Below are positions 1 to 57,120 of a stretch of DNA of 64,000 nt, piece by piece (position 1 is the first letter of the stretch; every line of letters begins with the position of its first letter). Made by a program: the position numbers and the translations under genes. The stretch is from a candidate division WWE3 bacterium (GTDB taxonomy: Bacteria > Patescibacteriota > WWE3 > UBA101185 > UBA10185). Under the pieces are notes generated by a model. The model was not told the origin of the DNA and made no database searches. It was given only the letters and a program-made list of their open reading frames with translations. The DNA is taken from assembly GCA_014729135.1 (NCBI GenBank), contig WJKK01000001.1, positions 593 through 64,592 of the forward strand, given 5' to 3'.

Positions 1-3000
1 AATGGGAATGATGGAACTATTAGTGGTGCTACGTGGCAGGATGAGAGTATGTGTATTAGTGGAGAGTGTCTTTATTTTGACGGCACAGATGACAAAGTTG
101 ACAGCTTCAGCACTTCTCAAAACGCGCAGACCATATCGTTTTGGATACGCCCAATTAGCACAACAGATTCTTTCATAGATCTTACCGGAAGTATTTACGT
201 AAATGCTTCATCCGGAACTGTGACAGGAACAGGATTCACATCACCTACAGTCTACGTAAATGGAGAAACTTCCTCTACAATTACTGCTAACACGTGGCAA
301 TTTGTTACTATCACAACAGAAACTGCTTTTGACGCCAACGCAATTGTAATAGGGCTTGCAAACTCCGATTACTTCAAAGGCTACCTCGACGAAATCAAAA
401 TCTACCCCTACGCCCGCTCCGCCTCCCAAATCCTAAACGACTACGCCAAAGGATCCGCCAGTGCAGGATCAAACGCAGTTTTAGGCGCCAACTCCTTTGG
501 AGGCACCAACACCGCCTCCCTATCCGACGGGTTAGTTGGGTATTGGAAAATGGATGACGATTCATGGGCTGACTCTAGTGGCAACGGCAATGACGGCACG
601 GGATACAATGGAGTTACAACAGCTGCGGGGAAGTTTGGAGATGGAGGGAGTTTTGATGGGGTTGATGATTATGTGGAGATAGGAGATACAGACGTATTAA
701 GTTTTGGTAACGGAAGCATTGACACCGCATTTTCAATAAGTACATGGATAAAAATGGATAATGCAGCACAATTTAGGCTTCCTAGTAAATACGGAACATC
801 TAGCGGACAGGAGTATGGTCTATTTACAAATGCCTCCGGTAAGTTGGGTTTCTATCTATACGATTCATCTAGCTACATAGGTATACTTACAACAGAGGCA
901 CTTACTTCTTATGAGGGGAGCTGGACACATGTATCCGCAAAATATGATGGAACTCAAACCTCCTCCGCAATGTCACTCTACATAAATGGCAAACAAGCAA
1001 CCACGGAAGAGTCTAACAGCGGGACCTATATTGCAATGAGCAATACAAGCTCCCCATTTCTAATGGGGAAATACTATACAAGTTATGGAAACGGGTCCAT
1101 CGACGAGGTGCGTATCTACAACCGTGCCCTTTCCCCCGCCGAAGTCCGAGCCCTTTACGAATACGCCCCCGGCCCCGTAGCCCATTGGAAATTTGATGAT
1201 GGTACAGGAACTGAAGCGGCAGACTCCAGTGGAAATGGGAACACAGGAACTTTAACTAACGGACCTACTTGGACAGCAGGTAAATACGGCAAGGCGCTGA
1301 GTTTTGATGGGACGGATGATTACGTGACCAAAGGGTACACAGAAAATTTAAAGTTAGGTAACAACGGAACCATCGAAGCATGGGTCAACCCCATAAATAC
1401 TAGCAATAACACACACAGTATAGTAAGTTACGGAAACGTATCCGGTTACACCACGGGATATTTACTAAATCAATATGGCACTTCTTTAAGCCTATACTGG
1501 AAAACAGGATCTCCTATTGCTACTGTTAGCAATTTCTTCTCAAAGAACACCTGGACCCATCTAGCAGTTAAAAACTCGGCAGGGAATTTGGAAATATTCA
1601 AAGATGGTATTCTCGTAGCTACAGCTGACTCGGGAGGGGAAATAACTGACGACCATGCAACTTATATCGGGGGGGCTGTATCCAACTACTTTAGTGAGGC
1701 ACTCATCGACGACGTGCGCATATACAACTACGCCCGCTCCCAAAAACAGATCATCGAAGACATGAACGCAGGTCACCCCGCCGGAGGCTCCCCCGTTGGC
1801 AGCCAAGTAGGCTATTGGAAGTTTGACGAAGGTTATGGAGACACCGCCAACGACTCCTCTATTCATGGAAACAACGGTGATTTAGGAGGAAGTGGAGAGG
1901 ACTGCTCTGATGGAGGTACGGGTTGCCCTTCCTGGAGTAATGAAGGAAGGTTTGGCAAAGCGTTGGACTTTAATTCCTCCGAAACCGACAACGTGTCTAT
2001 CGGAGATCTCGGCACTAATATAGGATCGGTGTGTTTTTGGACTAACTTAGATTCAACCACTGAAAAAATTATTGATTTGGATGGAGGCACTCATTACATA
2101 CAAGCCTCCTCAGGAACAGTTACCGGAGAAGGATTTTCATCACCTACTGTTTACTTAAACGGTAAAGAAGGCTCTACTATAGATACTAATTGGAATCACA
2201 TTTGCATCACAACAGCTACATCCTTTGACGCCAATGCAGTTACTGTAGGAAAAGTAGGAAGCGATTATCTGGACGGTATGGTGGACGAACTTAAAATTTA
2301 TAGTTACGAATTAAGCGAGGATGAAGTACGCGTAGAATACAACCGCGGAAAAGCCCTCGTTCTAGGCGCCCAAGGCACAGACCCCTCCGATGGATCCACC
2401 TCCTCTAACTCCGATCTTTCTAAATACTGCGTGCCCGGTGACACCTCCACCTGTAGAGCACCTGTAGGCGAATGGCTTTTTGATGAAGGTACGGGTACTA
2501 CGGCTTATGATAGTAGTGGAAATGGAAATGATGGAACTTTGACTAATGGCCCTGTTTGGAGTGCGGGGAAGGTTGGGAAGGGGTTGAGTTTTGATGGAAG
2601 TGATGATTATGTGGAGAGTGATTCCCCGGGGATTATAGGTACGGGAGAGTTAACCGTAAGCACCTGGTTTTCAACTACGAATACCACCGCAAGTCACGCA
2701 AATACACTGATTAGCTGGGGAGCAGCCCAAGACGGGGAAGGCTTGGAAATAAACGTAGAGAATGGAACGATATGGGTACGTAACTGGTTAAATACGGCCT
2801 ACGCTGGGGAAAACTATAATGATGGAAAATGGCACCACGTTTCGGTGAAAAAAGAAGCAGATACAACAATCGCGGGATGGGAAATATTCGTAGATGGAGA
2901 GAAACTAGAAACAACTACAAGTGGATCGGATACTATCAGTCTGGGAAACACTTACACTGTTGCTATCGGGGATACCTATCATACTCAAAGGTACTACGAC

Positions 3001-3732
3001 GGGCTCATCGACCAAGTCCGCATATACGACTACGCCCGCTCCCCCGCTCAAATCGCCTGGGAATACAACCAAGGCGCTCCCGTAGCCTGGTACAAATTTG
3101 ATGAAGGTGAAGGCACTACTGCTTATGATGCAAGTGGTAACGGAAATAACGGAACTTTAACTAACATGGACCCTGCAACGGATTATGTGGATGGGAAGAT
3201 TAATACTGCGCTTGATTTTGATGGGAGTGATGATTATGTGGAGATTACTAACAATGATGAATTAAACTCAAAATATATAACGTTGTCTGCCTGGGTTAAG
3301 GCAGACGCTATAGGCACACATCCAAGAATAATTGCAAAAGATTCAGTAACAGAAGATGCCGGACAATCCTATCAGTTAATATTACATTCCGCAGGACAAA
3401 TTTTCTTCCGGGGATATGCAGGAAATGCATGGCGGGGAGGAGATTTTGAAACAACCTTTTCCCAAAACGGATGGGAACATGTTGTAGCAACATATGACGG
3501 TGAGGTTTTTAGGGTTTATGTAAATGGAGAACAATCCCCTACCACATACAACTATGTAGGTGCTCTCGATACAGAGGATACGGACAACCTATGCATAGGG
3601 AGCAAGTGTGATAATCCCACAGGATATCCCTTCACGGGACAAATCGACGACGTTCGTATATACAACTATGCACTAACCGACTACCAAGTCAAACAACTCT
3701 ACAACCAAGGCGTCGCCGTACACTTTGACTAA
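1..3732 (+). CDS. Giant surface protein, 3' part only (5' end lies upstream of the window). Repeated LamG/concanavalin-A-like lectin modules
   Basis: Open reading frame runs from base 1 in frame with the 49..3732 ORF. Repeated modules 'GxWKFDEGxGTxAxDSSGNGNxGTLTNGPxW...GKxGxALxFDGxDDYV' and '(D/E)xxRIYN(Y/R)A(L/R)S' are typical of Laminin_G_3/concanavalin-like repeats in large secreted proteins. A stem-loop with a T-run follows at 3769-3797. Confidence 0.8.
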   Translation, partial: NGNDGTISGATWQDESMCISGECLYFDGTDDKVDSFSTSQNAQTISFWIRPISTTDSFIDLTGSIYVNASSGTVTGTGFTSPTVYVNGETSSTITANTWQFVTITTETAFDANAIVIGLANSDYFKGYLDEIKIYPYARSASQILNDYAKGSASAGSNAVLGANSFGGTNTASLSDGLVGYWKMDDDSWADSSGNGNDGTGYNGVTTAAGKFGDGGSFDGVDDYVEIGDTDVLSFGNGSIDTAFSISTWIKMDNAAQFRLPSKYGTSSGQEYGLFTNASGKLGFYLYDSSSYIGILTTEALTSYEGSWTHVSAKYDGTQTSSAMSLYINGKQATTEESNSGTYIAMSNTSSPFLMGKYYTSYGNGSIDEVRIYNRALSPAEVRALYEYAPGPVAHWKFDDGTGTEAADSSGNGNTGTLTNGPTWTAGKYGKALSFDGTDDYVTKGYTENLKLGNNGTIEAWVNPINTSNNTHSIVSYGNVSGYTTGYLLNQYGTSLSLYWKTGSPIATVSNFFSKNTWTHLAVKNSAGNLEIFKDGILVATADSGGEITDDHATYIGGAVSNYFSEALIDDVRIYNYARSQKQIIEDMNAGHPAGGSPVGSQVGYWKFDEGYGDTANDSSIHGNNGDLGGSGEDCSDGGTGCPSWSNEGRFGKALDFNSSETDNVSIGDLGTNIGSVCFWTNLDSTTEKIIDLDGGTHYIQASSGTVTGEGFSSPTVYLNGKEGSTIDTNWNHICITTATSFDANAVTVGKVGSDYLDGMVDELKIYSYELSEDEVRVEYNRGKALVLGAQGTDPSDGSTSSNSDLSKYCVPGDTSTCRAPVGEWLFDEGTGTTAYDSSGNGNDGTLTNGPVWSAGKVGKGLSFDGSDDYVESDSPGIIGTGELTVSTWFSTTNTTASHANTLISWGAAQDGEGLEINVENGTIWVRNWLNTAYAGENYNDGKWHHVSVKKEADTTIAGWEIFVDGEKLETTTSGSDTISLGNTYTVAIGDTYHTQRYYDGLIDQVRIYDYARSPAQIAWEYNQGAPVAWYKFDEGEGTTAYDASGNGNNGTLTNMDPATDYVDGKINTALDFDGSDDYVEITNNDELNSKYITLSAWVKADAIGTHPRIIAKDSVTEDAGQSYQLILHSAGQIFFRGYAGNAWRGGDFETTFSQNGWEHVVATYDGEVFRVYVNGEQSPTTYNYVGALDTEDTDNLCIGSKCDNPTGYPFTGQIDDVRIYNYALTDYQVKQLYNQGVAVHFD

Positions 3733-9655: not shown

Positions 9656-9736
9656 AATGATATCGTATTAATAACCAAAAACCCAGTTAAAATCTGGATC
9701 GCCGGTTTGAGGGAACCTCCCCCTTTGACGAACTTT

Positions 9737-9885
9737 TGCAGCGTAAAAGTTTTACAAACTTTTACGACTCATCGATAATCCGTCAGCGACGGATTTCGAT
9801 GTAACTAACAAGTTGCAACGCAACTTGTTAAATATTATTTTTATCGAAAATACAATTGAAAATCTAAATAAAACGTGAGAAGAAG
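9737..9885 (-). promoter_or_regulatory. Roughly 150-bp three-hairpin element (copy A) about 70 nt upstream of GH57 copy 1
   Basis: Hairpins CGTAAAAGTT/AACTTTTACG (9742-9766), ATCGATAATCCGTC/GACGGATTTCGAT (9771-9800) and AACAAGTTGC/GCAACTTGTT (9807-9829). About 90% identical to copy B at 11723-11870. Confidence 0.6.
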
Positions 9886-9920
9886 GTGGGAGGCTCCTTG
9901 AAATGACAGGCCAGAATCAA

Positions 9921-9986
9921 AGGCACTCTCCTGTAAGAAAAAATTTGAACCGTACTCGGTGAGCTTTTTTCGTCAGGAGAGTGCCT
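9921..9986. repeat. REP-like palindromic element, copy 1
   Basis: 13-bp outer stem AGGCACTCTCCTG/CAGGAGAGTGCCT enclosing the conserved core TAAGAAAAAATTTGA...GAGCTTTTTTCGT. Copy 2 is at 13611-13676 and copy 3 at 54673-54740. Confidence 0.7.
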
Positions 9987-10062
9987 TTGAAAAAAAAGAT
10001 CTTGACCCCAAAGCAAGCCCGAGGGAATACTTTCGTCAGGATGACAGCGAAGGAATATCTCT

Positions 10063-11580: not shown

Positions 11581-11722
11581 CTATGTTGTTAGTATAGCAA
11601 AATGTTATAGGCCTGTCAACCCGGGGGTGATTCGACCTAGAGTGGATCAAAGAGCTGCCCTGAACACAACTCCTTTTAACCTTTTCAGCTCATTGGAGGG
11701 ATTCTCCCACAAGAAAAAATTC

Positions 11723-11870
11723 TGCAGCGTAAAAGTTTACAAGACTTTTACGACTCATCGATAATCCGTCAACGACGGATTTCGATGTGGCTAACAAGTT
11801 GCCAAGCAACTTGTTAAATATTGTTTTTATCGAAAACACAATTGAAAATCTAAACGAAAGTGAGCGAAGC
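11723..11870 (-). promoter_or_regulatory. Roughly 150-bp three-hairpin element (copy B) between glgA copy 2 and GH57 copy 2
   Basis: Same three stems as copy A, with substitutions confined mostly to the loops: CGTAAAAGT/ACTTTTACG at 11728-11752, the second hairpin at 11757-11786, and AACAAGTTGC-caa-GCAACTTGTT at 11794-11815. Confidence 0.6.
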
Positions 11871-13453: not shown

Positions 13454-13610
13454 GTGAAGGGATTATAGCATATTGGTGTTTTGGTGGATGATTTCCCAGG
13501 TTTCCGCAAATCTGGAGTAGCAAAGGCGAAAGCAGAAAGCTACCTCCCGACGAAAAATTCTGTTCTTGCCCTTTCTCATCCGCGCCCTCACCTAAAGAGT
13601 TCTAGACCAA

Positions 13611-13676
13611 GGCAATCTCCTGTAAGAAAAAATTTGAGCCGTACTCGGTGAGCTTTTTTCGTCAGGAGAGTGCCTT
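13611..13676. repeat. REP-like palindromic element, copy 2
   Basis: Near-identical to copy 1 (AGGCAaTCTCCTG ... CAGGAGAGTGCCT). Located just downstream of the 13690 CDS stop. Confidence 0.7.
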
Positions 13677-13689
13677 GGAAACTAAATCG

Positions 13690-14598
13690 TTAGACTATTT
13701 CCTCAAGCTCATCAGCAAGACCCATCATCGCAAAATCCTGATTTAGCTGTGAGTCTGCAACTACGAAAAGACCATGCTTCTCCTGTTTGTCAGCAAAAAC
13801 TTCGGAGTCGTCGGTTAGCAAAAGACAAAGTTGGGCATTCTTTTCCGTGGTTTCCTCCAACTGAAGCATCTTGATGAAAAGATCTTCGGAGTCAGCCGGG
13901 ACATAGGTGTGCAAAACGGAAAACGGCTTTTTCAGGGGCTTCTCCAGGGATAAACCGGCATAAAGTGTGAAAGCATAATCAACTCCGGCCTTTCGCCCTA
14001 CTTTGTCAATGTTTTGCGCAACTTCTTTTAAACCGCCTAGCATGCTTTTATAGTATTTTATTGAAGTTTCTGAGGAGGCTTCTTCGCTGTCGTTAGAGGT
14101 TAAAGCGCTCAGTGTTTCTTTTTCCACGCCTTCATCCTCTTGTACGGAAACTGCCTGTTTTTCGGCTTTTTTGGAAGGGGCTGCCGGAGCTTTGAATTCT
14201 TCTGCAGCTGCTTTAAATTTGGAGAGCCAGTCGATTTCCTCTTCTTCTGAGGCTTCTTCTTCTGCTATTTCTTCTGTTTCCGCAGGAGTTTCTCCCTCCT
14301 CTTCAACATCTTCGGATTCCTCCACTTCCTCTTTTTGAGAAGGTGCTTTTGGTTGCTTCTTAGATGTTGTGGACTTTCTTCTCGAAGAATCTTGACTTGA
14401 CTCCCCTATGGAGTCCTCGTCACCATCAGGATATAAAAAGTTAAGAATGTCCTGCTTTGTAAAACGAAGTCTTCCTGTGGCAGTTTTTATCTCAGCCTCA
14501 AGCTTCCCTTGTTCCAAATAACGATATACGGAGCGTAGGCTAACGCCTAGCACGTCAGCTACTTCTGTTGAAGTATATAATTTTTCTTCTAAGTTCAT
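13690..14598 (-). CDS. HTH (excisionase/MerR-like) DNA-binding protein with an acidic linker and a C-terminal domain of unknown function
   Basis: N-terminus 'YTSTEVADVLGVSLRSVYRYLEQGKL' is an HTH_17-like helix-turn-helix. A long E/D-rich low-complexity stretch follows. Confidence 0.6.
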   Translation of the reverse strand: MNLEEKLYTSTEVADVLGVSLRSVYRYLEQGKLEAEIKTATGRLRFTKQDILNFLYPDGDEDSIGESSQDSSRRKSTTSKKQPKAPSQKEEVEESEDVEEEGETPAETEEIAEEEASEEEEIDWLSKFKAAAEEFKAPAAPSKKAEKQAVSVQEDEGVEKETLSALTSNDSEEASSETSIKYYKSMLGGLKEVAQNIDKVGRKAGVDYAFTLYAGLSLEKPLKKPFSVLHTYVPADSEDLFIKMLQLEETTEKNAQLCLLLTDDSEVFADKQEKHGLFVVADSQLNQDFAMMGLADELEEIV

Positions 14599-18012: not shown

Positions 18013-18765
18013 CTAGCGCACTTCTACCAACTTTGCTGTCACAACAAGCCTATTCAGCGTCGTTCCGGGAGGATCACAAGTTTGCAACGTCAGCAAAGGC
18101 TCCAAAACAGGCCGCGTAATAGGATATGTATCAAAGCCCTTATATTTTTCATTATTTATCACCTTATAAACATAATTGTCACCTTCATAAAACACATGAA
18201 TAGTATCCCCCACTCTCAAATGGCGAAGTAAATTAAAAACTGTCGCATATTTTCCTAGTTTCCAAAAATTAAGCGAGGCATGGGCAAAAATGTAGACGTT
18301 ACCGGGCTCCCTGGAAGGATAATCAGAAACCAGAGCATGTGCCACTCCTTTGGAAAGGGCTTCATTATAAGCTTCCTGATTAGTAACCGAAACGTCCTTT
18401 ACTACCGGGACATTTACACCGATACGCTCAATCACCAGACCGAAGTTTTTATCGACAGGTTCCAAGGCAATGGGTTTTGTGGAGATGAGGCGCGCAAACG
18501 GACTGTCAGACACTGTAGCAGAAGGGTCTGCAACTGAAGAGTCTTTGGAAGCTAAAGTGAACCGCTGATTTTTTAACTCTTTCCAATAAAAGAGTGCTTC
18601 TTGACCAACAAAGGGAGCAACTGAAATTAGGATAAAAATTATACCCAATATTAAAAGTGTGTTTGAAATTTTTGCAAGAATTTTTTCTTTCCTCGACTCA
18701 CCGGATATGAGGGGGCGCGACTTAATTCGCTGAGGTTTCCCCTTTTTCATTATGCGGGCAGACAT
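18013..18765 (-). CDS. Sortase-family transpeptidase (copy 1)
   Basis: N-terminal transmembrane helix and a C-terminal 'LTLQTCDP' TLxTC active-site motif. Start at the ATG at 18765. The track ORF begins at a TTG at 18771. Confidence 0.75.
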   Translation of the reverse strand: MSARIMKKGKPQRIKSRPLISGESRKEKILAKISNTLLILGIIFILISVAPFVGQEALFYWKELKNQRFTLASKDSSVADPSATVSDSPFARLISTKPIALEPVDKNFGLVIERIGVNVPVVKDVSVTNQEAYNEALSKGVAHALVSDYPSREPGNVYIFAHASLNFWKLGKYATVFNLLRHLRVGDTIHVFYEGDNYVYKVINNEKYKGFDTYPITRPVLEPLLTLQTCDPPGTTLNRLVVTAKLVEVR

Positions 18766-18784
18766 GTGCAAAGTATAACACGAA

Positions 18785-18848
18785 GGGACAGTCCTCTCCG
18801 AGGACAGTCCTTCGAGGGGACAGTCCTCTTAAAGGACTGTCCCCTTTT
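18785..18848. promoter_or_regulatory. Cluster of GGAC(A/T)GTCC palindromes, including a perfect 12-bp-stem hairpin plus TTTT, about 20 nt upstream of sortase copy 1
   Basis: GGGACAGTCCTC (18785), GAGGACAGTCC (18800), and GGGGACAGTCCT-cttaa-AGGACTGTCCCC (18816-18844) followed by TTTT. The same motif lies upstream of sortase copy 2 at 57095-57120. Confidence 0.55.
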
Positions 18849-18916: not shown

Positions 18917-21900
18917 ATGGGGTTGAATATGGTCGTCCAATGGGGTACTATAATTACAATGCCCGAAAACTTGCCCAATATATCTGAAAATTCATCCAAA
19001 AAAGCGACACCTGACAAAACAGGTCAACAACCCTTAAGCACCTCAGATGCAGCTAAAGAACTGGGCATCTCCCCTACTACACTAAAACGAATCCAGAAAA
19101 AATTTAAGCTGAATGTTCCACGCGATGAAAATAATTATCGTGTTTTTGATCAGGAGACTTTGGCAAGTTTTAGGGAGGCACTAGAAATTCACGAGGGAGG
19201 TGGCGCGGCGGCGGAAAAGAATGATTCCGGATCGGGGTCCAGAATGACAGTTTTTTCTCGTCATCCTGACGGAAGTCAAGATCCAGGATCCCGGATCAAG
19301 TCCGGGATGACAGATGGAAATAGGATGACAACACCTGGTCTCGAAATGACGAAATTTCGTCATTCTGAGCTTGACTCAAAATCTGCAGCGTCGATGAGAA
19401 GTGCAAGTCCTGCGGACATTGCACATCGGAATGACAGAAAGGGTGAAACAACCGAGGATCAGAAACTAACAGAAAACGCACAACTCTCCAAAGACCGCGC
19501 AAAACAAAGAGGAGCACTCACGCGAGAAAAAACACAACAAAAACTACTCAAAACCTTACCACTCCCCCTACTTGCAAGCACATTTGCCATGTTCTTTTTA
19601 TTCGGGCTTTTCACTCTTGGAGGCGCTTACTTCCAAAACGCCTCTAAAATAAAGGCAAAAACCCAAAATGTTAAGGCCCTGTTAGCCCACAACCTCAACG
19701 CGCCAATTCAAAATGCTTTTTCTCGCATAGAAAATGAGGTGTCAAATGATGTCAGCGGTTCTTCAATAGAGAATCTTGAAATGACAACAACGCATCATTC
19801 TGACGGAAGTCAAGATCCAGGATCCCGAGTCAAGCTCGGGATGACGGGGGGAAACGGAATGACTACGCTACTCTCCTCCCTAATCAAAAACAAAAAAGAC
19901 CAGCCCGGAGTACTAGCAACCGCCGTACTGGGCAGAAGAACAACTCGCCCCGACTTCGAACTCGACATCAACGTCCCCACAACAATCCGCGACAGCCTCA
20001 CCGTAGAAGGCACCATCTCAGCACGCACCTTCGCCACTCTCGCAGGAGGGCTCTCCACGGACAACCAAGACATAGATGCAGGCACCGGCACAATCACCGC
20101 GGGAACCATCACCGCAACCACAACAAACACCGGAACCCTCAACCTTACAGGACCGGCCACAATCAACAACCTCCTGACAATTGATGACGTCACTCAAACC
20201 ACCTTAGAAGAAGCGCTGGAACTCGCCGGAGACCTGGAAGGCACCTTAAACGCAGCCACCATCGTCACCCTCGGTGGAGCCGACGTTGGCGACATAGACT
20301 CAGGCGAACTTTTAATATTAGACGGCAACGAAATTACATCAGGTGAAATCACCGATTTAGACACAACAGCAATAACAGAACTGGGAACAATTTCAACCGG
20401 AACCTGGACAGCTACAGAAATAGGCCCGACTTATGGAGGCACAGGACTCACAACATACACAACAGGCGACCTCCTCTACTCCTCCGCTTCAAATACACTA
20501 GCCGCCCTCAACATAGGCACATCAGGACAAATGCTGACAGTTGCCGCAACAGGAATCCCACAGTGGCAGTCAGTTCAAGAAGCCGTTGGAGGCGCAGCAT
20601 TTTTACAAGAAGGAAACTCACTTGGAACCACAGCAATACTAGGAACCAATGACGCCTACAACCTAGTTTTTGAAACCAATAACACCGGTCACATGGCACT
20701 AACCTCCTCCGGAAAACTGGGCATTGGAACAACAGATCCCGGATCAGGGTCCGGGATGACAGTCATGGGAGGCAACGTTGGAATTGGCACAACCACCCCC
20801 ACTTCCCTACTCCACGTAGCAGGAGCCGCAGACATTGAAGGACAACTAACCGTAAACGAAGTCCTAATAACCCAAAACGGTATCGACAACTCAAGTGGAG
20901 GTATTACAAATGCCGGACCCATAACCGGAGCAACCGGCTTCACATCAAGTGGAACCATCACACTTAGCGACCTCTCCACAGGAGTGCTAAAATCCTCTGT
21001 TGGGGGCGTAATCTCATCCTCCGCCATAAACCTAGCCGACTCCGGAACCGACTACATCACAGGAACACTAACCCCAGCAAAAGGAGGAACAGGCCTAGCC
21101 TCCTACTCCATTGGCGACGTAATCTACGCATCCGCAGCAGACACACTAGCAGCTTTAGGCGCCGGCGGAGAAGGAGAAGTGCTAACAATAGACTCCGGAC
21201 TCCCCTCTTGGGGAAGCGTCACAGGCGACGGAGGCATCTGTACAAACTGCCTAGTAGACGATCCCGGAAGCACCCAAACCATAACCCCGACAAACGCAAC
21301 CGCCACCGGACTTTCTATAAAACAAGCCGACTCCGGAACCGCGGACGTCTTTAATGTACTGTCAAACGATGGCAATACTACTTTTTTTAAAATCGACAAC
21401 AGCGGAAACGTCGTTTTAGGCAACACCTCCTCCGCAGAATTTACCGTATCACCAACAAGCACCGATCCAATAGCTATTTCACCGGTTGCACAAGGCTCTA
21501 ACGCCTACACAGGAACCATCACCAGCTCCGACTTAACAGCAGCCAGAACATGGACTTTCCCCGACGCCACAGGAGCCGTTTGTCTTGCCACCGGAAACTG
21601 TAGTGGAGTCGGCGCCAACTTGGGAGGTGAAGGAGCACAATACTACATAACCCGCTGGTCAGGACAATACACACTTGAAAACTCAAACATTTGGGATGCC
21701 GGCTCAGGAGTTGGCATAGGCACAACAGACCCAAGCTATGATCTGGATGTAGCCGGAACTTTTAACACCTCAGGTGCAGCTACGTTAGGCAGCACTCTAG
21801 ATGTAACAGGAAACACGAGCCTAGCTGGAGAACTAGACGTCACCCAAGCAACAACACTAAACAGCACACTAGAAGTCACCAGCGCCACCACCCTCTCCTC

Positions 21901-24900
21901 CACCTTAGATGTCACCAGCAACGTAACCACCGGAGGACGTTTGGCAGTAAATGGCGCAAGTGATTCTTGGGTAGACGGCAATTTAGGCCTTGGCACAACC
22001 GACCCCACAAAGCAACTGCATGTTTCAGGTGGCGACGCCCTTTTTGAAGATGATGTTTATTTAGGCGATTCCACCGGTGTTTCAAAAGTTTTAAATGCTA
22101 ACGCAGGATCAACAGAGGGAGGCTTTAGCGTGCAAAATTCTACCACTAACCTTTTAGCCAACGGGTCCTTTGAATCGAGTACTTTTAGTGCAGGGTGGGA
22201 TATGGATGGGTTTGTGTTTGATCAGGATGAGGTTACGTTTACAACTGCCATGGCAAAAAGGACGGGCCAAGGGCCTTTTGCAGCAGCGCCTATTGTGCAA
22301 ACAAATTGGGAAGACGACACAACCAATGGGGATAGAATCAACTACAGCATTAGTGACACCCTGTACGAAGGGTTTTTTCCTGAATTTGATAGCGAACAAG
22401 GAACAATTGTTATGTGGGTAACCCCCGAATGGAACGGAACAAGTACAGAAACTCACACTTTTTTAAATGACCAGTATGACAGATTCAGATTGTACTTTGA
22501 CAATGGTAACCTATATTTTAAAGGGGCTGGAGGTGTTGGAAGCACGGGAGTATCTACAGACGTCTCAGATTGGACTGCAGGAAGCACTTACCTCATAACG
22601 GCTCGCTGGGACAGAACCAACGAGCTTGAGGGAGCAAACCACGCCTCTTTGACAGTAGAAAATGCAGCACCCACATTCGGCGAGGAAACTCCGGGCATAT
22701 GGAACGCTGGTAATATCTATATAGGAAATGATATATCCAGCACGCCTACCAATGCCATTATAGAGGGGCTTACCATCTACCGCCGACCATTATATGACGG
22801 AACCTATGGTATTGATGTCGGTAACGGCGATGAAATCGCTGCTATATACAACTCGGGCAGCGGAGAAGATCCTACCCTAACCACCGGTTCCTGGGATGTA
22901 GTCTTTGCCCTCCCCACCAACGCCTCCATCGGAGCACTTTCTACAGGCACAGGCGAGGCCTGGACCCATCCACATGCTTCTAACGTCCTTTACACCGATA
23001 CTGATAACACCGGGGGTTTTATGATGAACGGCACTTACACTTCAGACGGATGGTCCGATGAGGGCTCCCCTACTTCGGTAGCAGCACTTGCAACAGACGA
23101 AAAGATTTTTGCAGGAGGATACAAAACCGTAAGTGATGCAGCAAACGAAGGTATTAAATACAGTTTAAGCGGGCTTTCAGCAGGAGAAAACTATGTTGTT
23201 AGAGCACTTGCCCACTCCGATGGAACATCAATCCCCAAAATTCAAATTTGGGATGCTACTAATGGAGCCGAAATTACGCAAATGACAGCAGATGATGCAA
23301 CTTCAGACCGAGATACACCGGAGGTGTTTTTGTTTACGTTTGAGTTACCAACAGTTGCTAGAAATGGAGTTGCAAGTGATTGTACCTCTATAGAGGTGCG
23401 GCTTTTGAACACACAAGCAAGTGGGACGACTTACTGGCATCAAGTGGAACTACTAGAAAACTATATTGATAACCCTTCACTTGAAACAGGTTCGGGCGAT
23501 CCGTGGATCCCGGATGGGTGGAGCAACTCCGGTTTAGATACAACGGAAAGCGCTGCGGAAACAGGCACTTACCACACAGGATCAAACGCCATTAGCTTAA
23601 ATCCCGATGCGGGAAATGAAGGCACTACCACTAATGATATTGGTCCTTTAGCTGCTAACGCATACATTGCAGTAGGAGGCTGGTCAATTTCTACAAATTT
23701 AAACCCAAAACTAATGGGGGGAATAGGTATTGAAGAGCAAGATGGCTCTCCCGAAGATTATGCAGGACCTTATTTGAGCGGAGATACAACCTGGGAAACA
23801 GAAGCCAGAGTCCTTCGCGCTGACTTCTCAAGGCCTACAAGTGAGTTCACGCTAAGAGACCCAGCGGCAGTGAACGCATATAGTGGTATCTTTGATGATA
23901 TCTATGCGTATGATCTAACCGATGTCTCTCTCACAGTCACCCCCGCCTCAGAAGCCAACTCCACAGAAAGTACGGGACTTAGAGTAGATGGAAGGGATAC
24001 GGCTACACAAACCATAAGTAATATTACAGCAACAGAAGGAAGAATACGGTTTAAATGGACACCTAGACATTCAGCGGGGAACGCTAATACATATCAAGGA
24101 GGAGATAGGACCACTATCGCTTACTTTTTCTATGACTACTCAAACTATATCATTGTGCGATGGTGGTCGGACAGTACAATAAGATTAAGTATAAAAGACC
24201 CAAATAATCTCGACGGAAACAGTTGGGATGCAACAGGAAGCATAAGTGCGGGCACAACTTACGATATGGAAATCATTTATAATGAGAACAGAGCAGCGCT
24301 AAATATAGATGGCAATGAAACTAGTGTTATTGAGGAAGGAACCAATTTTGACAACACACCAGATGAAGCCTACTGGGCAAGCTGGAGTGACGGAAGATTT
24401 AATGGCGACGCCACATTCGCCTCCCCCGACCCCTCCACCACAGCAGAAACAGCCAGCGCCAACACCTACCTCGGCAAAAAAGCAGCCGAAATAAACGCCT
24501 CCGGAAACTACTCCGCAGAACTAACCCAAAGTGTTGACCCCAACTCCACAAGCACTCACACCCTATCCGCCTACATAAAAATGAGCGACGCAAGCGAAGT
24601 CACCTCCTCAAAAGTAAAACTCATCTGGGAGGGAAGCCTAGTAACTCCCGATTCTTACACCCAAGTAGGCTCAACCGGATGGTACCGATTGTCATACTCT
24701 GCAGCCACAACCGATGCCTCCAACGACTACGGAGTCTACGTGGAAAACGGCTACACGGCTTATGCAGATGGCGTTCAACTGGAGGCTAGCGCCTTTGCCA
24801 CCAACTTTGCCGACAATAATTTGGCGCGGGTTGCAGGAGCCAGCATTGCGGATAACGATTTAATTGGCCGTACTTTGGGGGTTTATGGCCAAAGCACTTT

Positions 24901-27900
24901 CTTTGGAGATTTGATTCCGGGTTACAGCGACGTTTATGATTTGGGGTCTAGCAGTTATAAGTGGAATAATTTGTATTTAGCTGGTGATATTAATTTGTCA
25001 GGGGAGCTGTTGTTAGCGGATGGAACTGCCGCCCTTCCTTCGTTGGCTTTTTCTAGTGATGCCAATACGGGGCTGTACCGTTTGGGAGATGATCAGCTTG
25101 GATTTAGTACGGGAGGGTCTAGTAGGGTTGTGATTGATGAGAGTGGATATGTGGGGATTGGGACGACGGATCCATCCTCTGCACTGAAAATTGAGAATGG
25201 AAACATTGAAATAGGGGGTGATTATAACCCAGGGTTAAAAATATATTCCTGGGAAACCACCCACGGAACAGGTAGTTACGCGCAGTTAGAGAAAACGTCT
25301 CTTACAGTAAGCTCAAGATTCTCTTATGGGGATTTTTCAGTAAAATCGAGAGACAACAGCTTAGATCAAACTAAAACATCCTTGAAAATCCTGGGAGATT
25401 CTGGAAATGTTGGTATTGGAAATAGTGACCCCGAAGAAGCTCTTCATATCCAGAATCCCGCAGGAGCCTACATCAAACTCCAAACAGCTGAAAGTATAGA
25501 TTCCGACTCAGAAGGTTTGATATTTTCACACTATAACCATTCCGGTAATTCTTGGGAGGAAGCCAGCGTATTTTACGATTGGTGGGGTAGAACAGGATTG
25601 AACTACAAATCTAACGGCAGGGACGGTGATCACGCCGACCACAGGTTTTTGGATAATGAGAATAACGTACATATGCTCATAACAGATGCGGGACTTGTTG
25701 GAGTGGGAACCACCGCCCCCGCCTCCACCCTCGACGTGGCCGGTACCGCCTGGCTCCGTGGTGACACGGGTGATAACGGGCTTTTTGTTGAAGCTGGAGG
25801 GAATGTAGGCATCGGAACCACAGACCCAAGCGAAGAGTTAGAAATTAAAGGAAACGGAAGCGCTGATTTAATTTTAAAAAGAAATAATGATGTAACAGGA
25901 GAACAAGGAAATCTCATATTCCAAACTTTCAATGGTACAGAAATGGCAAAAATAACAGGCAACCGCGTGGGCGGAGATGGAGAGCTTAATTTCCATACAG
26001 ATGGAGCCCTAACGATGGTTTTAGACAGATACGGAAGAATTCAGAGCGGCCAAAATATCGACGGCACCCCCAGTAGCTGGCTCGAAATCTACAGACATTC
26101 CCCATCAGCAAATGAGTCTTTGCTCAAGCTTGCAACAGGAAGCAATGATAATTTGTTTAACATTGATAGCGAAGGTGATGCATATATTTCTAATACATTA
26201 GGTATCGGCACCACCTCCCCCACCTCCACCCTCGATGTTGCAGGTACCGCCTGGCTCCGCGGTGACACGGGTGATAACGGGCTTTTTGTTGAAGCAGGAG
26301 GAAATGTAGGTATCGGCACCACCAATCCGGAAAGCCTTTTACACATCGAATCCGGAACAGAAGAGGCATTCAAAATTAAGAATGCGGGTTCTGACCCCGT
26401 TATAAGTTTAGGAAACAGTGGGGGGAACGGCTTAATTAAAGGAGGCCTAAATAACAGTCTATTTATTAGATCTCTAGGAAACTCAAACTCCGAGGGTATA
26501 TCTTTCCAGAATGACACTAGTGATGGAGGGTCACCCACCACTCTGATGCATTTAAATAGACTGGGATACTTAGGTATAGGAACTACTGCTCCTAGTGGAC
26601 AACTCCACTCCACCGGCACTGTTTTCTTTGCGGGGGTTTATGATGATGATTTAAATGGAGGTACTTATAGAGACTTGCTGGTACAAGACGATGGTCAGTT
26701 AGGCTACGACTCCTCCTCTATTCGCTACAAAACTAATGTAATTGACATGGAGGATACCTCATGGATTTATGATTTGCGACCGGTTAACTATGAATACAAA
26801 CAGAAAGATGAAAATGGGAATTATTTAGAAACCGGTACGGGAGTTATGAAGTATGGGCTTATTGCTGAAGAGGTTGAACAGGTTAATGATAGCTTTGTGT
26901 TCTATAACGTGTTGGATGACGGATCTAAACAAGTGGAAGGTGTGCAATATAGAGAACTAGTCACTCCAATTATCCAAGCCGTTCAAGATCAAAAAATAAC
27001 GTTAGATGAGCATGGAATAATCCTTAAAGATCTTGGAGCTGTGGATGAAACCAGCCCTACCCTTTTAGAAATGGAAGACAACATAGCCTCTTTGCAAGCA
27101 GGGCTTGAAACCACAAACACAGAAATCGCAGACATGAGGATGATCCTCGATGAAATCAGCACTTCAGTCCTTGAGAGCAGTGAATCTTTTGGACTGGAAG
27201 AAGGATCATCCTTAACAGAAAGTGGGGTTTTAGAGTCAACAGAAAGCACAAGTAGCACTTCGAACAAGGATGATCCTTCATTAGTTTTGATGGAAATCGA
27301 ATCCGTTTATGATGAGTTTAAAGAATTTGTGGCAGCACTTGGCCTTTCCGTAAACACAGAAACCGAAACTCTAATAGCAGAAAGCAACTTTACAGTAATT
27401 GGACAAACAACCCTGGCTGATACAACAATCACAGGAGATTTGGCGGTAGGATTGCTGACAATCGACTCCATGGAAAACTCTATTGGAATTACAGGGCCCT
27501 CCTGCTATTCAGAAATAACAGGCGAAACAAATGAAGCACTTTGCAAAACGGGAACTCTATATTTACAAAAGAACCTGGCAGGTAATTTGGATATATTCAA
27601 TGGCAAAATCGTCCTCTCCCCTGATGGTAATTTAGAGGTTGCAGGAGCAGTAGCAGCTTCGGCTATAAGGGTAGATGAAAATGGAGGTACTATAGGATCG
27701 GGCATGCTAGAGGCAGGGGAAACTTCTCTAATAGTTGCAAGTGCAGAGATCACTAGTAAGTCCAAAATTTTCGTAACCCCAACAAATTCAACAGTCGGCC
27801 AAACACTATGGATAGGAGAAAAAACCGAGGGGGAAAGTTTTGAAGTTAAAATAGACTCTCCGGTAGATTCTGACATAACCTTTGACTGGTGGATTATAAA

Positions 27901-27904
27901 TTAG
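18917..27904 (+). CDS. Giant (2995 aa) membrane-anchored surface protein: N-terminal HTH, transmembrane helix, tail-fibre-like GIGTTDP repeats, lectin-like region, S74-type intramolecular chaperone/autoproteolysis domain, C-terminal coiled-coil and beta domain
   Basis: Single ORF. aa 40-90 'LSTSDAAKELGISPTTLKRIQKKF...NYRVFDQETLASFREA' is HTH_17-like. Transmembrane helix 'LPLPLLASTFAMFFLFGLFTLGGAYF' at about aa 215-240. Repeated '(L/V)GIGTTxPxxxL(H/D)V(A/S)G' tail-fibre motifs. 'YDSSSIRYKTNVIDMED...YGLIAEEVEQV' at about aa 2595 matches the SDxRxK...GLIAQEVE core of peptidase S74 / endosialidase C-terminal chaperone domains. Confidence 0.85.
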   Translation: MGLNMVVQWGTIITMPENLPNISENSSKKATPDKTGQQPLSTSDAAKELGISPTTLKRIQKKFKLNVPRDENNYRVFDQETLASFREALEIHEGGGAAAEKNDSGSGSRMTVFSRHPDGSQDPGSRIKSGMTDGNRMTTPGLEMTKFRHSELDSKSAASMRSASPADIAHRNDRKGETTEDQKLTENAQLSKDRAKQRGALTREKTQQKLLKTLPLPLLASTFAMFFLFGLFTLGGAYFQNASKIKAKTQNVKALLAHNLNAPIQNAFSRIENEVSNDVSGSSIENLEMTTTHHSDGSQDPGSRVKLGMTGGNGMTTLLSSLIKNKKDQPGVLATAVLGRRTTRPDFELDINVPTTIRDSLTVEGTISARTFATLAGGLSTDNQDIDAGTGTITAGTITATTTNTGTLNLTGPATINNLLTIDDVTQTTLEEALELAGDLEGTLNAATIVTLGGADVGDIDSGELLILDGNEITSGEITDLDTTAITELGTISTGTWTATEIGPTYGGTGLTTYTTGDLLYSSASNTLAALNIGTSGQMLTVAATGIPQWQSVQEAVGGAAFLQEGNSLGTTAILGTNDAYNLVFETNNTGHMALTSSGKLGIGTTDPGSGSGMTVMGGNVGIGTTTPTSLLHVAGAADIEGQLTVNEVLITQNGIDNSSGGITNAGPITGATGFTSSGTITLSDLSTGVLKSSVGGVISSSAINLADSGTDYITGTLTPAKGGTGLASYSIGDVIYASAADTLAALGAGGEGEVLTIDSGLPSWGSVTGDGGICTNCLVDDPGSTQTITPTNATATGLSIKQADSGTADVFNVLSNDGNTTFFKIDNSGNVVLGNTSSAEFTVSPTSTDPIAISPVAQGSNAYTGTITSSDLTAARTWTFPDATGAVCLATGNCSGVGANLGGEGAQYYITRWSGQYTLENSNIWDAGSGVGIGTTDPSYDLDVAGTFNTSGAATLGSTLDVTGNTSLAGELDVTQATTLNSTLEVTSATTLSSTLDVTSNVTTGGRLAVNGASDSWVDGNLGLGTTDPTKQLHVSGGDALFEDDVYLGDSTGVSKVLNANAGSTEGGFSVQNSTTNLLANGSFESSTFSAGWDMDGFVFDQDEVTFTTAMAKRTGQGPFAAAPIVQTNWEDDTTNGDRINYSISDTLYEGFFPEFDSEQGTIVMWVTPEWNGTSTETHTFLNDQYDRFRLYFDNGNLYFKGAGGVGSTGVSTDVSDWTAGSTYLITARWDRTNELEGANHASLTVENAAPTFGEETPGIWNAGNIYIGNDISSTPTNAIIEGLTIYRRPLYDGTYGIDVGNGDEIAAIYNSGSGEDPTLTTGSWDVVFALPTNASIGALSTGTGEAWTHPHASNVLYTDTDNTGGFMMNGTYTSDGWSDEGSPTSVAALATDEKIFAGGYKTVSDAANEGIKYSLSGLSAGENYVVRALAHSDGTSIPKIQIWDATNGAEITQMTADDATSDRDTPEVFLFTFELPTVARNGVASDCTSIEVRLLNTQASGTTYWHQVELLENYIDNPSLETGSGDPWIPDGWSNSGLDTTESAAETGTYHTGSNAISLNPDAGNEGTTTNDIGPLAANAYIAVGGWSISTNLNPKLMGGIGIEEQDGSPEDYAGPYLSGDTTWETEARVLRADFSRPTSEFTLRDPAAVNAYSGIFDDIYAYDLTDVSLTVTPASEANSTESTGLRVDGRDTATQTISNITATEGRIRFKWTPRHSAGNANTYQGGDRTTIAYFFYDYSNYIIVRWWSDSTIRLSIKDPNNLDGNSWDATGSISAGTTYDMEIIYNENRAALNIDGNETSVIEEGTNFDNTPDEAYWASWSDGRFNGDATFASPDPSTTAETASANTYLGKKAAEINASGNYSAELTQSVDPNSTSTHTLSAYIKMSDASEVTSSKVKLIWEGSLVTPDSYTQVGSTGWYRLSYSAATTDASNDYGVYVENGYTAYADGVQLEASAFATNFADNNLARVAGASIADNDLIGRTLGVYGQSTFFGDLIPGYSDVYDLGSSSYKWNNLYLAGDINLSGELLLADGTAALPSLAFSSDANTGLYRLGDDQLGFSTGGSSRVVIDESGYVGIGTTDPSSALKIENGNIEIGGDYNPGLKIYSWETTHGTGSYAQLEKTSLTVSSRFSYGDFSVKSRDNSLDQTKTSLKILGDSGNVGIGNSDPEEALHIQNPAGAYIKLQTAESIDSDSEGLIFSHYNHSGNSWEEASVFYDWWGRTGLNYKSNGRDGDHADHRFLDNENNVHMLITDAGLVGVGTTAPASTLDVAGTAWLRGDTGDNGLFVEAGGNVGIGTTDPSEELEIKGNGSADLILKRNNDVTGEQGNLIFQTFNGTEMAKITGNRVGGDGELNFHTDGALTMVLDRYGRIQSGQNIDGTPSSWLEIYRHSPSANESLLKLATGSNDNLFNIDSEGDAYISNTLGIGTTSPTSTLDVAGTAWLRGDTGDNGLFVEAGGNVGIGTTNPESLLHIESGTEEAFKIKNAGSDPVISLGNSGGNGLIKGGLNNSLFIRSLGNSNSEGISFQNDTSDGGSPTTLMHLNRLGYLGIGTTAPSGQLHSTGTVFFAGVYDDDLNGGTYRDLLVQDDGQLGYDSSSIRYKTNVIDMEDTSWIYDLRPVNYEYKQKDENGNYLETGTGVMKYGLIAEEVEQVNDSFVFYNVLDDGSKQVEGVQYRELVTPIIQAVQDQKITLDEHGIILKDLGAVDETSPTLLEMEDNIASLQAGLETTNTEIADMRMILDEISTSVLESSESFGLEEGSSLTESGVLESTESTSSTSNKDDPSLVLMEIESVYDEFKEFVAALGLSVNTETETLIAESNFTVIGQTTLADTTITGDLAVGLLTIDSMENSIGITGPSCYSEITGETNEALCKTGTLYLQKNLAGNLDIFNGKIVLSPDGNLEVAGAVAASAIRVDENGGTIGSGMLEAGETSLIVASAEITSKSKIFVTPTNSTVGQTLWIGEKTEGESFEVKIDSPVDSDITFDWWIIN
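19259..19313. repeat. 55-bp palindromic element inserted in-frame in the giant gene (copy 1); a related 24-bp unit lies at 19227-19250
   Basis: GTCATCC...GATCCAGGATC...CCCGGA-tcaag-TCCGGG...GGATGAC. Encodes 'HPDGSQDPGSRIKSGMTDG'. Confidence 0.6.
19793..19847. repeat. 55-bp palindromic element inserted in-frame in the giant gene (copy 2); a further short relative lies at 20735-20763
   Basis: About 87% identical to copy 1. The internal stem is CCCGAG-tcaag-CTCGGG, a compensatory change relative to CCCGGA/TCCGGG. Confidence 0.6.
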
Positions 27905-56251: not shown

Positions 56252-57082
56252 CTAAATCCTCTTAGCCTTAACCACAAAACGATTGTTATAAGTCCCCTCA
56301 GCGGGCACCCAAACTCCTCCGCAAGTCACAAGCGTTAAAGAAACCCCCTCCCCCTTCAAAACTCTTTCCACACGATCATCGTCAAAAATACTCACATAGA
56401 AAGTTTCGGTGATTTGATAGGCGAAAGTTCTTCCAAACGAATCAACTAAGTAGACTTTATCATTTACTTTTAGGCTTTTCAAGTTGTAAAAAGCAGCCGG
56501 CAATCCTTGCGCGTTGTCATAGTGCCCGTTAATTACAATGTTGCCTTCCTCGCCTGCTTTGGCGGAGCGCCTGTACCATCCGGCTTTGCTCCACTCTGTA
56601 GGAGTTTGCATTTGCCCGGCGGAGTTTACGTCGACTTTTTCCAGGGCGGCTTCTATTAACTTTTTTTCAGAGACTTTGCCATCGTTGTCGACTTTTTTGG
56701 CATAGATTTTCACAGGATCCTCGTATATGGGAGTTAATTTGCTGCCAAAGGCTGACGGTTTTTCTTCTGTAGAGTCAGCGTCGCTTGTGGATGTTTTGGA
56801 GGCGTTAGCCCCTCCTGTGGAGACGCCTAAAGCGTTAAGTGCTTTTACTCCGGAGGATTTAAGCTGCGCGCCTGCCTCCCCTAGGAGTTGCGCTGTTTTG
56901 CTGCCAAAATCGGATAAATTTAGTTCTATTGAAGGTAATTTTGGCACAGATACAGATGAAAATGTTTTGCTAAGAAGTTTGCTGTTTGTGTTTATTTGAG
57001 TGAAATAGATCAGTACCACACCTACAGCGATGCTTGTGCTTACTAATATTCCGGTTGTCAGATGCAACATTCTTTCTTTCAT
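56252..57082 (-). CDS. Sortase-family transpeptidase (copy 2)
   Basis: N-terminal transmembrane helix. 'LTLVTCGG' TLxTC motif. Confidence 0.75.
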   Translation of the reverse strand: MKERMLHLTTGILVSTSIAVGVVLIYFTQINTNSKLLSKTFSSVSVPKLPSIELNLSDFGSKTAQLLGEAGAQLKSSGVKALNALGVSTGGANASKTSTSDADSTEEKPSAFGSKLTPIYEDPVKIYAKKVDNDGKVSEKKLIEAALEKVDVNSAGQMQTPTEWSKAGWYRRSAKAGEEGNIVINGHYDNAQGLPAAFYNLKSLKVNDKVYLVDSFGRTFAYQITETFYVSIFDDDRVERVLKGEGVSLTLVTCGGVWVPAEGTYNNRFVVKAKRI

Positions 57083-57094
57083 ATCCTATAAAAA

Positions 57095-57120
57095 GGGACT
57101 GTCCTCGTAGAGGACAGTCC
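57095..57120. promoter_or_regulatory. GGACTGTCCTC-gta-GAGGACAGTCC palindrome/hairpin 13 nt upstream of the sortase copy 2 start codon
   Basis: Perfect 11-bp inverted repeat. On the mRNA it is followed by UUUUU, a weak SD and the AUG. Same motif family as 18785-18848. Confidence 0.55.

Follow-up and report, generated by a model that had tools for sequence, protein, structure and literature searches.

A 64-kb stretch of DNA from a candidate division WWE3 bacterium (the window, that is, the whole stretch analysed) carries one giant gene whose 2995-residue product joins, in a single polypeptide, a MerR-type winged helix-turn-helix (HTH), one transmembrane (TM) helix, a long ectodomain bearing fibre repeats, an internal S74 chaperone domain and a conserved C-terminal domain. 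We consider it likely that this giant protein is a type-II (N-in) membrane-anchored, probably homotrimeric fibre by which an episymbiotic WWE3 cell attaches to a host or surface, built from modules shared with phage fibres and with the mosaic adhesive trimer (MAT) family of Bdellovibrio. None of the parts is new in itself: S74 chaperones, fibre repeats of the MAT/phage type, the tailspike cap and the winged HTH of MerR proteins have all been seen before. The novelty lies in how they are arranged: the DNA-binding head is cytoplasmic, a TM helix provides the anchor, and the cleavage site is followed by a conserved module that is served by interchangeable chaperones. No description of an HTH-TM-fibre-chaperone architecture was found in the literature searched on S74 proteins, giant proteins or HTH proteins from the CPR (candidate phyla radiation)/Patescibacteria.

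Amino-acid numbers used here refer to the product of the open reading frame (ORF), and nucleotide positions to the window. The six-frame ORF list and translation contain no internal stop (0) in the 2995 codons between 18917 and 27904 on the plus strand, in agreement with an earlier reading of the DNA made from its letters alone (the sequence-only reading), which had described one uninterrupted frame. To judge from homologs that begin or continue with 'MPDSAQDK', Met15 at 18959 ('MPENLP...') may be the true start. The product is 100% identical to a protein deposited at NCBI under the name 'MerR family transcriptional regulator [candidate division WWE3 bacterium]' and encoded on a contig of 864 kb, and NCBIfam holds no model matching it.

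The N-terminal HTH proposed in the sequence-only reading was recovered by Pfam MerR_1 (PF13411), which matches residues 41-86 with 23.5 bits (cut-off 21.6) over model positions 2-47 of 69, the DNA-binding half only. The head is without the dimerisation coiled-coil helix and the effector-binding region of MerR regulators, and continues instead into a low-complexity linker, the TM helix and a 2750-residue ectodomain; the giant protein is not to be classed among the MerR-family regulators. An AF2 (AlphaFold2) model of residues 15-110 has a predicted local distance difference test score (pLDDT) of ~80-85 across the HTH. Its best match in the PDB is the DNA-binding domain of RacA, in both apo and DNA-bound forms (30% identity over ~56 residues, root-mean-square deviation [rmsd] 2.1 A), and further matches include NmlR, CarH, BldC, GlnR and the pSK1 Par centromere binder, as well as the CueR and SoxR fold. 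Heads of homologous proteins align well along 'AAKxLGVSxxTLRR...R...GYR.F', which comprises the recognition helix and the wing, and the DNA-contacting positions of winged HTHs, the 'TLRR' of the recognition helix and the wing Arg, are conserved among them. A word-indexed homology search with the N-terminal 420 residues returned one weak match only, and was probably swamped by words from the low-complexity linker.

A Kyte-Doolittle scan of all 2995 residues detected one hydrophobic stretch, in windows starting at residues 210-219, which bears out the single hydrophobic helix of the sequence-only reading and places it at residues ~214-237. The N-terminus consists of HTH, linker and TM helix, with no signal peptide. 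Ahead of the helix, 213 residues form a basic segment (K+R 16%, net charge +6) devoid of Cys; past it, the ~2360 residues are acidic (K+R 4.3%) and carry closely spaced Cys pairs. A lone helix, a basic head free of Cys and an acidic ectodomain with paired Cys fit an N-in, C-out topology.

The ectodomain had been described as GIGTT-type repeats extending over ~2700 residues. That description did not survive a motif scan, which located 11 motifs in two blocks, at residues 602-1024 and 2080-2553, and between them a middle of roughly 900 residues without such motifs. PHROG tail-fibre families match residues 2021-2556, and phmmer interrogation of the PDB aligned 8ojn_C (entry title 'Cell wall surface anchor family protein') with residues 576-685 (2.2e-4) and Bdellovibrio Bd2133 (8ond_A) with residues 2060-2094 (2.8e-4). 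The earlier proposal of a giant adhesin made of phage-fibre parts remains the best reading. Within the gene, a 116-nucleotide (nt) direct repeat (25706-25821 / 26207-26322, 91% identical) encodes '...TLDVAGTAWLRGDTGDNGLFVEAGGNVGIGTT...', and a near-identical '...TLDVAGTAWLRGDTGDNGLFVEAGGNVGIGTT...' peptide occurs in P0002, a paralog from the same genome. At the level of sequence, the repeat and the paralogous copy suggest recent duplication or gene conversion between fibre genes, and hence mosaicism.

Pfam Peptidase_S74 (PF13884) matches residues 2600-2661 with 28.5 bits in the whole protein and 31.9 bits in the C-terminal 408 residues alone (cut-off 22). The motif 'SSIRYK' sets Ser2600 (codon 26714-26716) and Lys2605 (codon 26729-26731) in the canonical S-x4-K spacing, and the invariant positions of a 16-sequence family alignment include S2600, R2603 and K2605, a Tyr, and the G/I/A of 'GLIAEEVE'. 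Single-sequence phmmer searching of the PDB with the S74 region gave nothing relevant; matches came only with the family profile, which retrieved solved S74 domains with the Ser/Lys motif in register, including the phage S16 fibre (6f45, 1.3e-14), 8jov (2e-12), T5 pb1 (8hqz, 1e-8), the ICA domain of MYRF (7dc3, 8e-8) and GA-1 (3gud, 9e-4). The internal S74 domain recognised in the sequence-only reading is upheld by these results, as is the Ser/Lys dyad for which that reading had recommended a check. Characterised S74 proteins are cut immediately N-terminal to the catalytic Ser, as shown for Bd3182 at S782 (PMC10769870). We therefore predict a cut between residues 2599 and 2600, which would make 2599 the end of the mature fibre and free a 396-residue fragment.

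The S74 domain does not lie at the extreme C-terminus: 334 residues extend beyond the Pfam match, and the additional C-terminal segment noted earlier resolves into predicted helices, a probable coiled coil, and a beta-sandwich. In an AF2 model of residues 2540-2995 the S74 domain has a pLDDT of ~90 and is accompanied by long helices at residues ~2678-2707, 2716-2757 and 2787-2807, a poorly modelled stretch and then a confident terminal beta-sandwich comprising the last ~70 residues. By Foldseek, the S74 part of the model matches the MYRF ICA domain, and the sandwich resembles the C-terminal domains of phage tailspikes (Pam1 7eea, K64-1 depolymerase 9k4a, Sf6 2vbm and K1 lyase 7w1c; probability ~1, rmsd 2.6-4.3 A, 77-93 columns) and matches many viral models annotated 'K1 lyase C-terminal domain'. 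Pfam K1-lyase_C scores 20.5 bits in the giant protein against a cut-off of 27, and is above threshold in the relative P0043. The C-terminal domain contains two invariant Cys in the family alignment, at residues 2863 and 2876, and gave no tblastn match in 50,697 phage genomes.

The protein family is defined by the last 211 residues (2785-2995), with which an exhaustive HMMER search retrieved 1604 representative clusters at E<=1e-3, 489 of them at <=1e-10. In every case the matched segment forms the very C-terminal end, and the proteins are as long as 7185 residues. The giant protein shares the features of this family: a ~210-residue C-terminal domain with two invariant Cys, a terminal (F/I)-(D/N)-W-W, and a chaperone upstream. 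Local profile hidden Markov models (HMMs) were built from the heads, the S74 segments and a set of 'ADYAEYF'-type segments; the last of these proved to be Pfam Peptidase_G2 (35.7 bits in P0148, 24.4 bits in P0003). In a census of the 71 proteins having at least 450 residues upstream of the C-terminal domain, 62 contain S74 and/or G2 (S74 only in 29, G2 only in 31, both in two) and nine contain neither. The type of chaperone differs even between close relatives, P0001 having S74 and P0003 having G2, and likewise P0102 (S74) and P0114 (G2), despite 78% identity between the C-terminal domains of the latter pair. The self-cleaving chaperone, the coiled coil and the C-terminal domain together thus behave as a conserved unit, within which one chaperone type can stand in for the other.

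The complete order of HTH, TM helix, fibre, chaperone and C-terminal domain recurs in P0002, P0003, P0004, P0005, P0033, P0039 (7185 residues), P0044 and P0046; in P0002 (2204 residues), P0003 (3106), P0004 (4572) and P0005 (4725) the MerR-type HTH comes first, followed by one TM helix and fibre repeats. The sequence-only reading had called the architecture unusual, which holds among characterised proteins but not in Patescibacteria, where it is common. It had also suggested a search for orthologs with and without the head, and both exist: among 35 long members with a judgeable N-terminus, 21 have an HTH head, each with a TM helix following at residues ~85-175, and the remaining 14 have an N-terminal hydrophobic anchor alone. 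Nearest neighbours in the phylogeny of the C-terminal domain share the same head state in 30 of 35 cases, against 17.9 +/- 3.5 when states are shuffled. Because head state follows this phylogeny, the head is stably inherited and not a sporadic fusion. Tandem HTHs are present in three family proteins, and other DNA-binding folds occupy the head position elsewhere (in P0013 an HTH of the excisionase type, in P0011 integrase SAM-like domains in tandem); at least three DNA-binding fold types, and no other fold types, were seen there.

Named sources of family members are WWE3, 'Patescibacteria group' and Saccharimonadales. A genome scan with a 5-sequence alignment of the C-terminal domain, chosen since an 18-sequence alignment was too diverse for locus scanning, yielded seven loci, all in metagenome-assembled genomes of WWE3 or Saccharibacteria; the giant genes there extend past the 10-kb flank or are masked, and contribute nothing on heads. 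The domain may not be strictly confined to Patescibacteria, given that P0006, a protein that carries it, is encoded on a 3-Mb contig. P0004 and P0005 lie among genes for ATP synthase and Rho and among ribosomal and toxin-antitoxin genes, with no phage genes on their flanks.

Comparison with known systems places the giant protein nearest to the MAT fibres, such as Bd3182 and Bd2133, which are the closest characterised cellular family. The MAT proteins of Bdellovibrio bacteriovorus are surface-displayed, trimeric, mosaic adhesins, all with a conserved ~130-residue beta-rich domain after the signal peptide; an S74 domain ends 13 of the 21 and cleaves itself, and at least one member binds prey glycans (PMC10769870). 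Like them, the giant protein is a long fibre of cellular, non-phage origin with 'GIGTT...L.V' repeats and direct similarity to 8ojn and 8ond, and belongs to a mosaic family that combines a conserved base with variable modules, includes many members with the S74 S-x4-K motif, and has multiple paralogs per genome. Unlike them, it has a cytoplasmic HTH and a TM anchor in place of a signal peptide and beta-rich N-terminal domain, is three times longer, and adds a coiled coil and the conserved 211-residue domain after S74, where MAT proteins end at S74 or at a binding tip. With phage fibres and tailspikes (endosialidase K1F 3GW6, T5 pb1, S16 gp37) it shares the Ser/Lys dyad, a 'GLIAQEVE'-type helix and fibre repeats before S74, and its terminal beta-sandwich resembles the C-terminal domains of the Sf6, K1 lyase and Pam1 tailspikes. 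It differs from these in being non-phage and membrane-anchored, in having an S74 domain that is not the last domain, and in having close relatives that use a chaperone of the Peptidase_G2 type.

The presence of a DNA-binding domain, a trimerising S74 (ICA) autoprotease and one TM helix in a single polypeptide also recalls MYRF/MrfA, the membrane-bound transcription factors of eukaryotes (PMC3742443, PMC3828593, PMC8326128). The order of parts is different: in MYRF the DNA-binding domain is followed by S74 and then the TM helix, and cleavage releases the DNA-binding domain, whereas in the giant protein the DNA-binding domain (41-86) is followed by the TM helix (214-237), the fibre and only then S74 (2600-2661). 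Its head is moreover a MerR-type winged HTH, unlike the Ndt80-like domain of MYRF. RacA, which anchors the Bacillus subtilis chromosome to the cell pole (PMC4914108), provides another parallel. Like the head described here, it has a MerR-type winged HTH without an effector domain, and it links DNA to the membrane or cell pole; RacA is, however, soluble and reaches the membrane through DivIVA, whereas the head of the giant protein is covalently continuous with a TM helix and a surface fibre. RodZ, ToxR and CadC are likewise bitopic, with a cytoplasmic HTH at the N-terminus, one TM helix and a large domain outside, but these have HTHs of the XRE or OmpR class, small sensor or scaffold ectodomains instead of fibres, and no autoproteolytic chaperone.

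Domain content, the single TM helix, the charge asymmetry, the conserved catalytic residues, the recurring architecture and the homology to MAT and phage fibres are results of the analysis; beyond them we infer that the giant protein trimerises, cleaves itself, is displayed at the surface and binds both a host and DNA, and propose the following course of assembly. The helix at residues ~214-237 would act as a signal anchor, keeping the basic 213 residues with their HTH in the cytoplasm while the acidic ~2750 residues are exported. The S74 chaperone, the coiled coil and the Cys-containing beta domain with its tailspike-like sandwich would emerge last, and this C-terminal module would trimerise and start the beta-helical fibre folding, like a zipper, back towards the membrane, in the manner of the S74 domains of phage fibres. 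The Ser2600/Lys2605 dyad would then cut at 2599/2600, releasing the 396-residue fragment and exposing the mature tip. The mature fibre, residues ~240-2599, would stay tethered through the TM helix and carry lectin- or carbohydrate-binding-module (CBM)-like modules midway, its middle and tip serving attachment. Beneath the membrane the three HTH heads of each fibre would bind DNA, most likely as a RacA-like nucleoid-membrane tether or as a local regulator.

Several observations weigh against parts of this proposal. The HTH of the giant protein is the most degenerate among the heads ('TLKR', 'NNYRVF'), and its head linker is riddled with inserted palindromic units. For the lectin-like middle claimed in the sequence-only reading, the only match is to Laminin_G_3 at residues ~1157-1292 (22385-22792), with a score below the Pfam cut-off (24.9 bits vs 27.6, E 2.4e-5). 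Model confidence is low just upstream of S74 and at residues ~2810-2925. That members of the family trimerise, are cleaved, reach the surface and bind DNA is proposed by homology, and the argument for host attachment is drawn only from the lifestyle of cultivated relatives. Finally, conservation is higher in the C-terminal domain than in the fibre, which fits a role in folding or export and is odd for a discarded piece; it might stay bound or have a function of its own.

The succession of HTH, TM helix and large ectodomain is also the layout of a one-component membrane regulator, and the giant protein could be a membrane-tethered transcription factor or sensor, a bacterial counterpart of MYRF, ToxR or CadC, in which host contact or ectodomain processing is relayed to the HTH through release (for example by regulated intramembrane proteolysis) or altered binding. 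An S74 domain can release a trimeric transcription factor, as it does in MYRF (PMC3742443, PMC3828593); the heads are conserved and share their inheritance with the fibre; and a repeated near-palindromic motif, GGACAGTCC, in the promoter region of the giant gene itself would suit a tethered regulator. We nevertheless judge this explanation unlikely. The S74 site is extracellular, ~2360 residues past the TM helix, so that cleavage there frees the C-terminal 396 residues and not the HTH; S74-mediated release of the HTH was rejected on this account, and the suggestion in the sequence-only reading that S74 processing is relayed to the DNA-binding domain is unsupported. Such signalling would call for a different protease, and no partner protease is evident. 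The lack of a MerR dimerisation helix and effector domain counts further against a regulator, as does the bare N-terminal TM anchor of ~40% of the judged family members, and GGACAGTCC is also found upstream of a second, unlinked sortase gene and may be a sortase operator instead. The many relatives with a short N-terminal anchor only would be accommodated if the head were a topogenic or anchoring plug, a fast-folding basic domain that enforces the N-in orientation and holds the base of the very long fibre with no sequence-specific or physiological role at DNA; the strongly basic charge of the head region relative to the ectodomain and the tolerance of its linker for in-frame palindromic insertions fit as well. 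A plug of this kind seems rather doubtful when the head position is occupied by at least three DNA-binding folds and no other fold types, when the DNA-contacting positions of the winged HTH ('TLRR', wing Arg) are conserved, and when some members carry HTHs in tandem.

PHROG tail-fibre matches, the S74 domain and the tailspike-like sandwich could be expected of a phage or tailocin structural gene such as a prophage tail fibre, and the inserted repeat elements in the junction region of an assembly or annotation artefact that fuses a regulator gene with a fibre gene. Both versions are largely refuted and only a very slight chance is left to them. The gene is flanked by MreB, sortase, tRNA, NDK and ArgRS genes, and homologous loci also have housekeeping neighbours; the C-terminal domain is absent from the phage genomes searched by tblastn; and the TM anchor is conserved. 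With housekeeping flanks, no phage genes and no phage-genome match for the C-terminal domain, the prophage fibre was rejected. The domesticated phage fibre considered in the sequence-only reading stands only in so far as modules are shared with phages; the gene and two homologous loci have housekeeping neighbours, and the C-terminal domain has no match in the 50,697 phage genomes. Different assemblies provide over 20 independent proteins with the same fusion. Because this layout recurs in the paralog and in independent homologs, a stop or frameshift artefact is very unlikely, and a gene-fusion artefact was rejected on the recurrence of the architecture.

A bolder extension of the attachment-fibre reading, to which we give a small chance, would make the fibre a transmembrane link from the host-contact surface to the chromosome, widespread in Patescibacteria, in which the three heads tether the nucleoid or switch expression on host contact. 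If true, this would be a prokaryotic membrane-bound transcription factor or nucleoid anchor made from the phage parts used in MYRF, in the opposite topology. The factors mainly implicated so far in the recognition and holding of hosts by Patescibacteria are type IV pili and a few adhesins; a family of ~1600 clusters, with some members in Saccharibacteria, a group having genetically tractable members, is an obvious candidate for attachment apparatus and host-range determinants, and its members are hidden by the database label 'MerR family transcriptional regulator'. Two of its features go unexplained by what is known of phage and Bdellovibrio fibres: a surface fibre bears a conserved DNA-binding head in the cytoplasm, and the self-cleavage site, at which S74 and G2 are interchangeable, is followed by a conserved module.

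Table 1. Features of the giant gene and its promoter region, in window coordinates
Feature	Position	Strand	Basis or remark
Giant gene	18917..27904	+	2995 aa
GGACAGTCC repeats, four copies, 16-bp spacing	18786..18842		Divergent promoter region common to the sortase gene (18013-18771, -) and the giant gene
MerR-type winged HTH, aa 41-86	19037..19174	+	Pfam MerR_1; conserved in homolog heads; AF2 fold match
In-frame palindromic hairpin units ('...RRATGAC' -> xGMT/xRMT), cytoplasmic linker	19225..19372	+	Includes 72-nt repeat copy 1 (19261-19332)
Single TM helix, aa ~214-237, signal anchor	19556..19627	+	Kyte-Doolittle scan and charge asymmetry
Second set of palindromic units, juxtamembrane outer linker	19776..19866	+	Includes 72-nt repeat copy 2 (19795-19866), 83% identical to copy 1
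Membrane-proximal stalk base, aa ~335-560, 'LGRRTTRPDFELDINVPT...'	19919..20596	+	Best-conserved portion with paralog P0002 and P0003
First GIGTT-type fibre-repeat block, aa ~576-1040	20642..22036	+	Motif scan; similar to 8ojn_C
Non-repeat middle, lectin/CBM-like sequence, aa ~1090-1960	22184..24796	+	Sub-threshold Laminin_G_3
Second fibre-repeat block, aa 2021-2556	24977..26584	+	PHROG tail-fibre families; Bdellovibrio Bd2133
S74 intramolecular-chaperone/autoprotease domain	26714..27043	+	Pfam aa 2600-2661; family profile to ~aa 2709
Long predicted helices (probable trimeric coiled coil), then Ser/Thr/Glu-rich linker, aa ~2710-2784	27044..27268	+	AF2 model
Family-defining C-terminal domain, aa 2785-2995	27269..27901	+	Family search, alignment, AF2; ends 'FDWWIIN'

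The palindromic units of the linkers belong to a repeat with 13 plus-strand matches to '...RRATGAC' in the window, six of them within 19239-19836 and one more at 20751. The 72-nt repeat folds into stable hairpins, and the units keep the reading frame and are located in disordered linkers. In sequence they resemble REP (repetitive extragenic palindromic)/MITE (miniature inverted-repeat transposable element)-like elements, apparently tolerated within a coding sequence. A similar remnant, 'SRIKSRMTG', is present in paralog P0002.

On its 5' side the giant gene is neighboured by a divergent sortase gene, genes for a PEGA-domain protein, MreB and a WecG-type glycosyltransferase, glycogen-metabolism genes and an L10 leader, and on its 3' side by three tRNA genes and genes for NDK, a phosphoesterase and ArgRS. 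No phage genes are found among its neighbours in the window, which is ordinary chromosome. An LPxTG-like sorting signal is absent from the giant protein, which leaves no evident link to the neighbouring sortase, and a sortase gene is not conserved next to homologs of the giant gene. The 9-mer GGACAGTCC, described as near-palindromic, occurs six times in the window against 0.21 copies expected; in addition to the copies listed in Table 1, two inverted copies at 57096-57120 are found immediately upstream of another, unlinked sortase gene of class-F-like type (56252-57082, -). The 9-mer may serve sortase genes as a common operator or promoter element, and its assignment to the giant gene is uncertain.

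ATP-synthase genes adjoin both distant HTH-headed homologs, P0004 (locus L001) and P0005 (locus L009), the latter being also near rplJ/rplL; in the window, likewise, the L10 leader and rplJ/rplL lie 13 kb upstream of the giant gene. This proximity may reflect a loose conserved synteny. At L001, an inverted repeat with 8-bp arms (TCTATGCA...TGCATAGA) is situated just upstream of the giant gene.

Elsewhere in the window, positions 49-3732 (+) encode a 1227-residue surface-type protein with six Laminin_G_3 (ConA-like lectin) repeats (E 2e-114) and, from its called start, neither an obvious signal sequence nor an obvious anchor. Two pairs of intergenic direct repeats, one of 143 nt (9731-9873 / 11717-11859, 90% identical) and one of 78 nt (9920-9997 / 13609-13686, 94% identical) with a strong inverted repeat (AAGGCACTCTCCTG...CAGGAGAGTGCCTT), flank GH57, glycogen-synthase and HTH_17 genes. 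A soluble 302-residue protein encoded at 13690-14598 (-) begins with an excisionase/BldC-like HTH_17, continues in a long acidic linker and ends in an unassigned domain; it was considered as a second instance of the architecture of the giant protein and rejected, as it has no TM helix. The segment 44404-50000, adjoining a tRNA-Ala gene, has a raised G+C content (0.49-0.57 vs ~0.42 elsewhere) and encodes polytopic membrane proteins that match nothing in Pfam, together with a LysM protein and another in which an 'ESGG...QIN' stretch resembles lytic transglycosylases; it may be a genomic island or the remnant of a secretion system.

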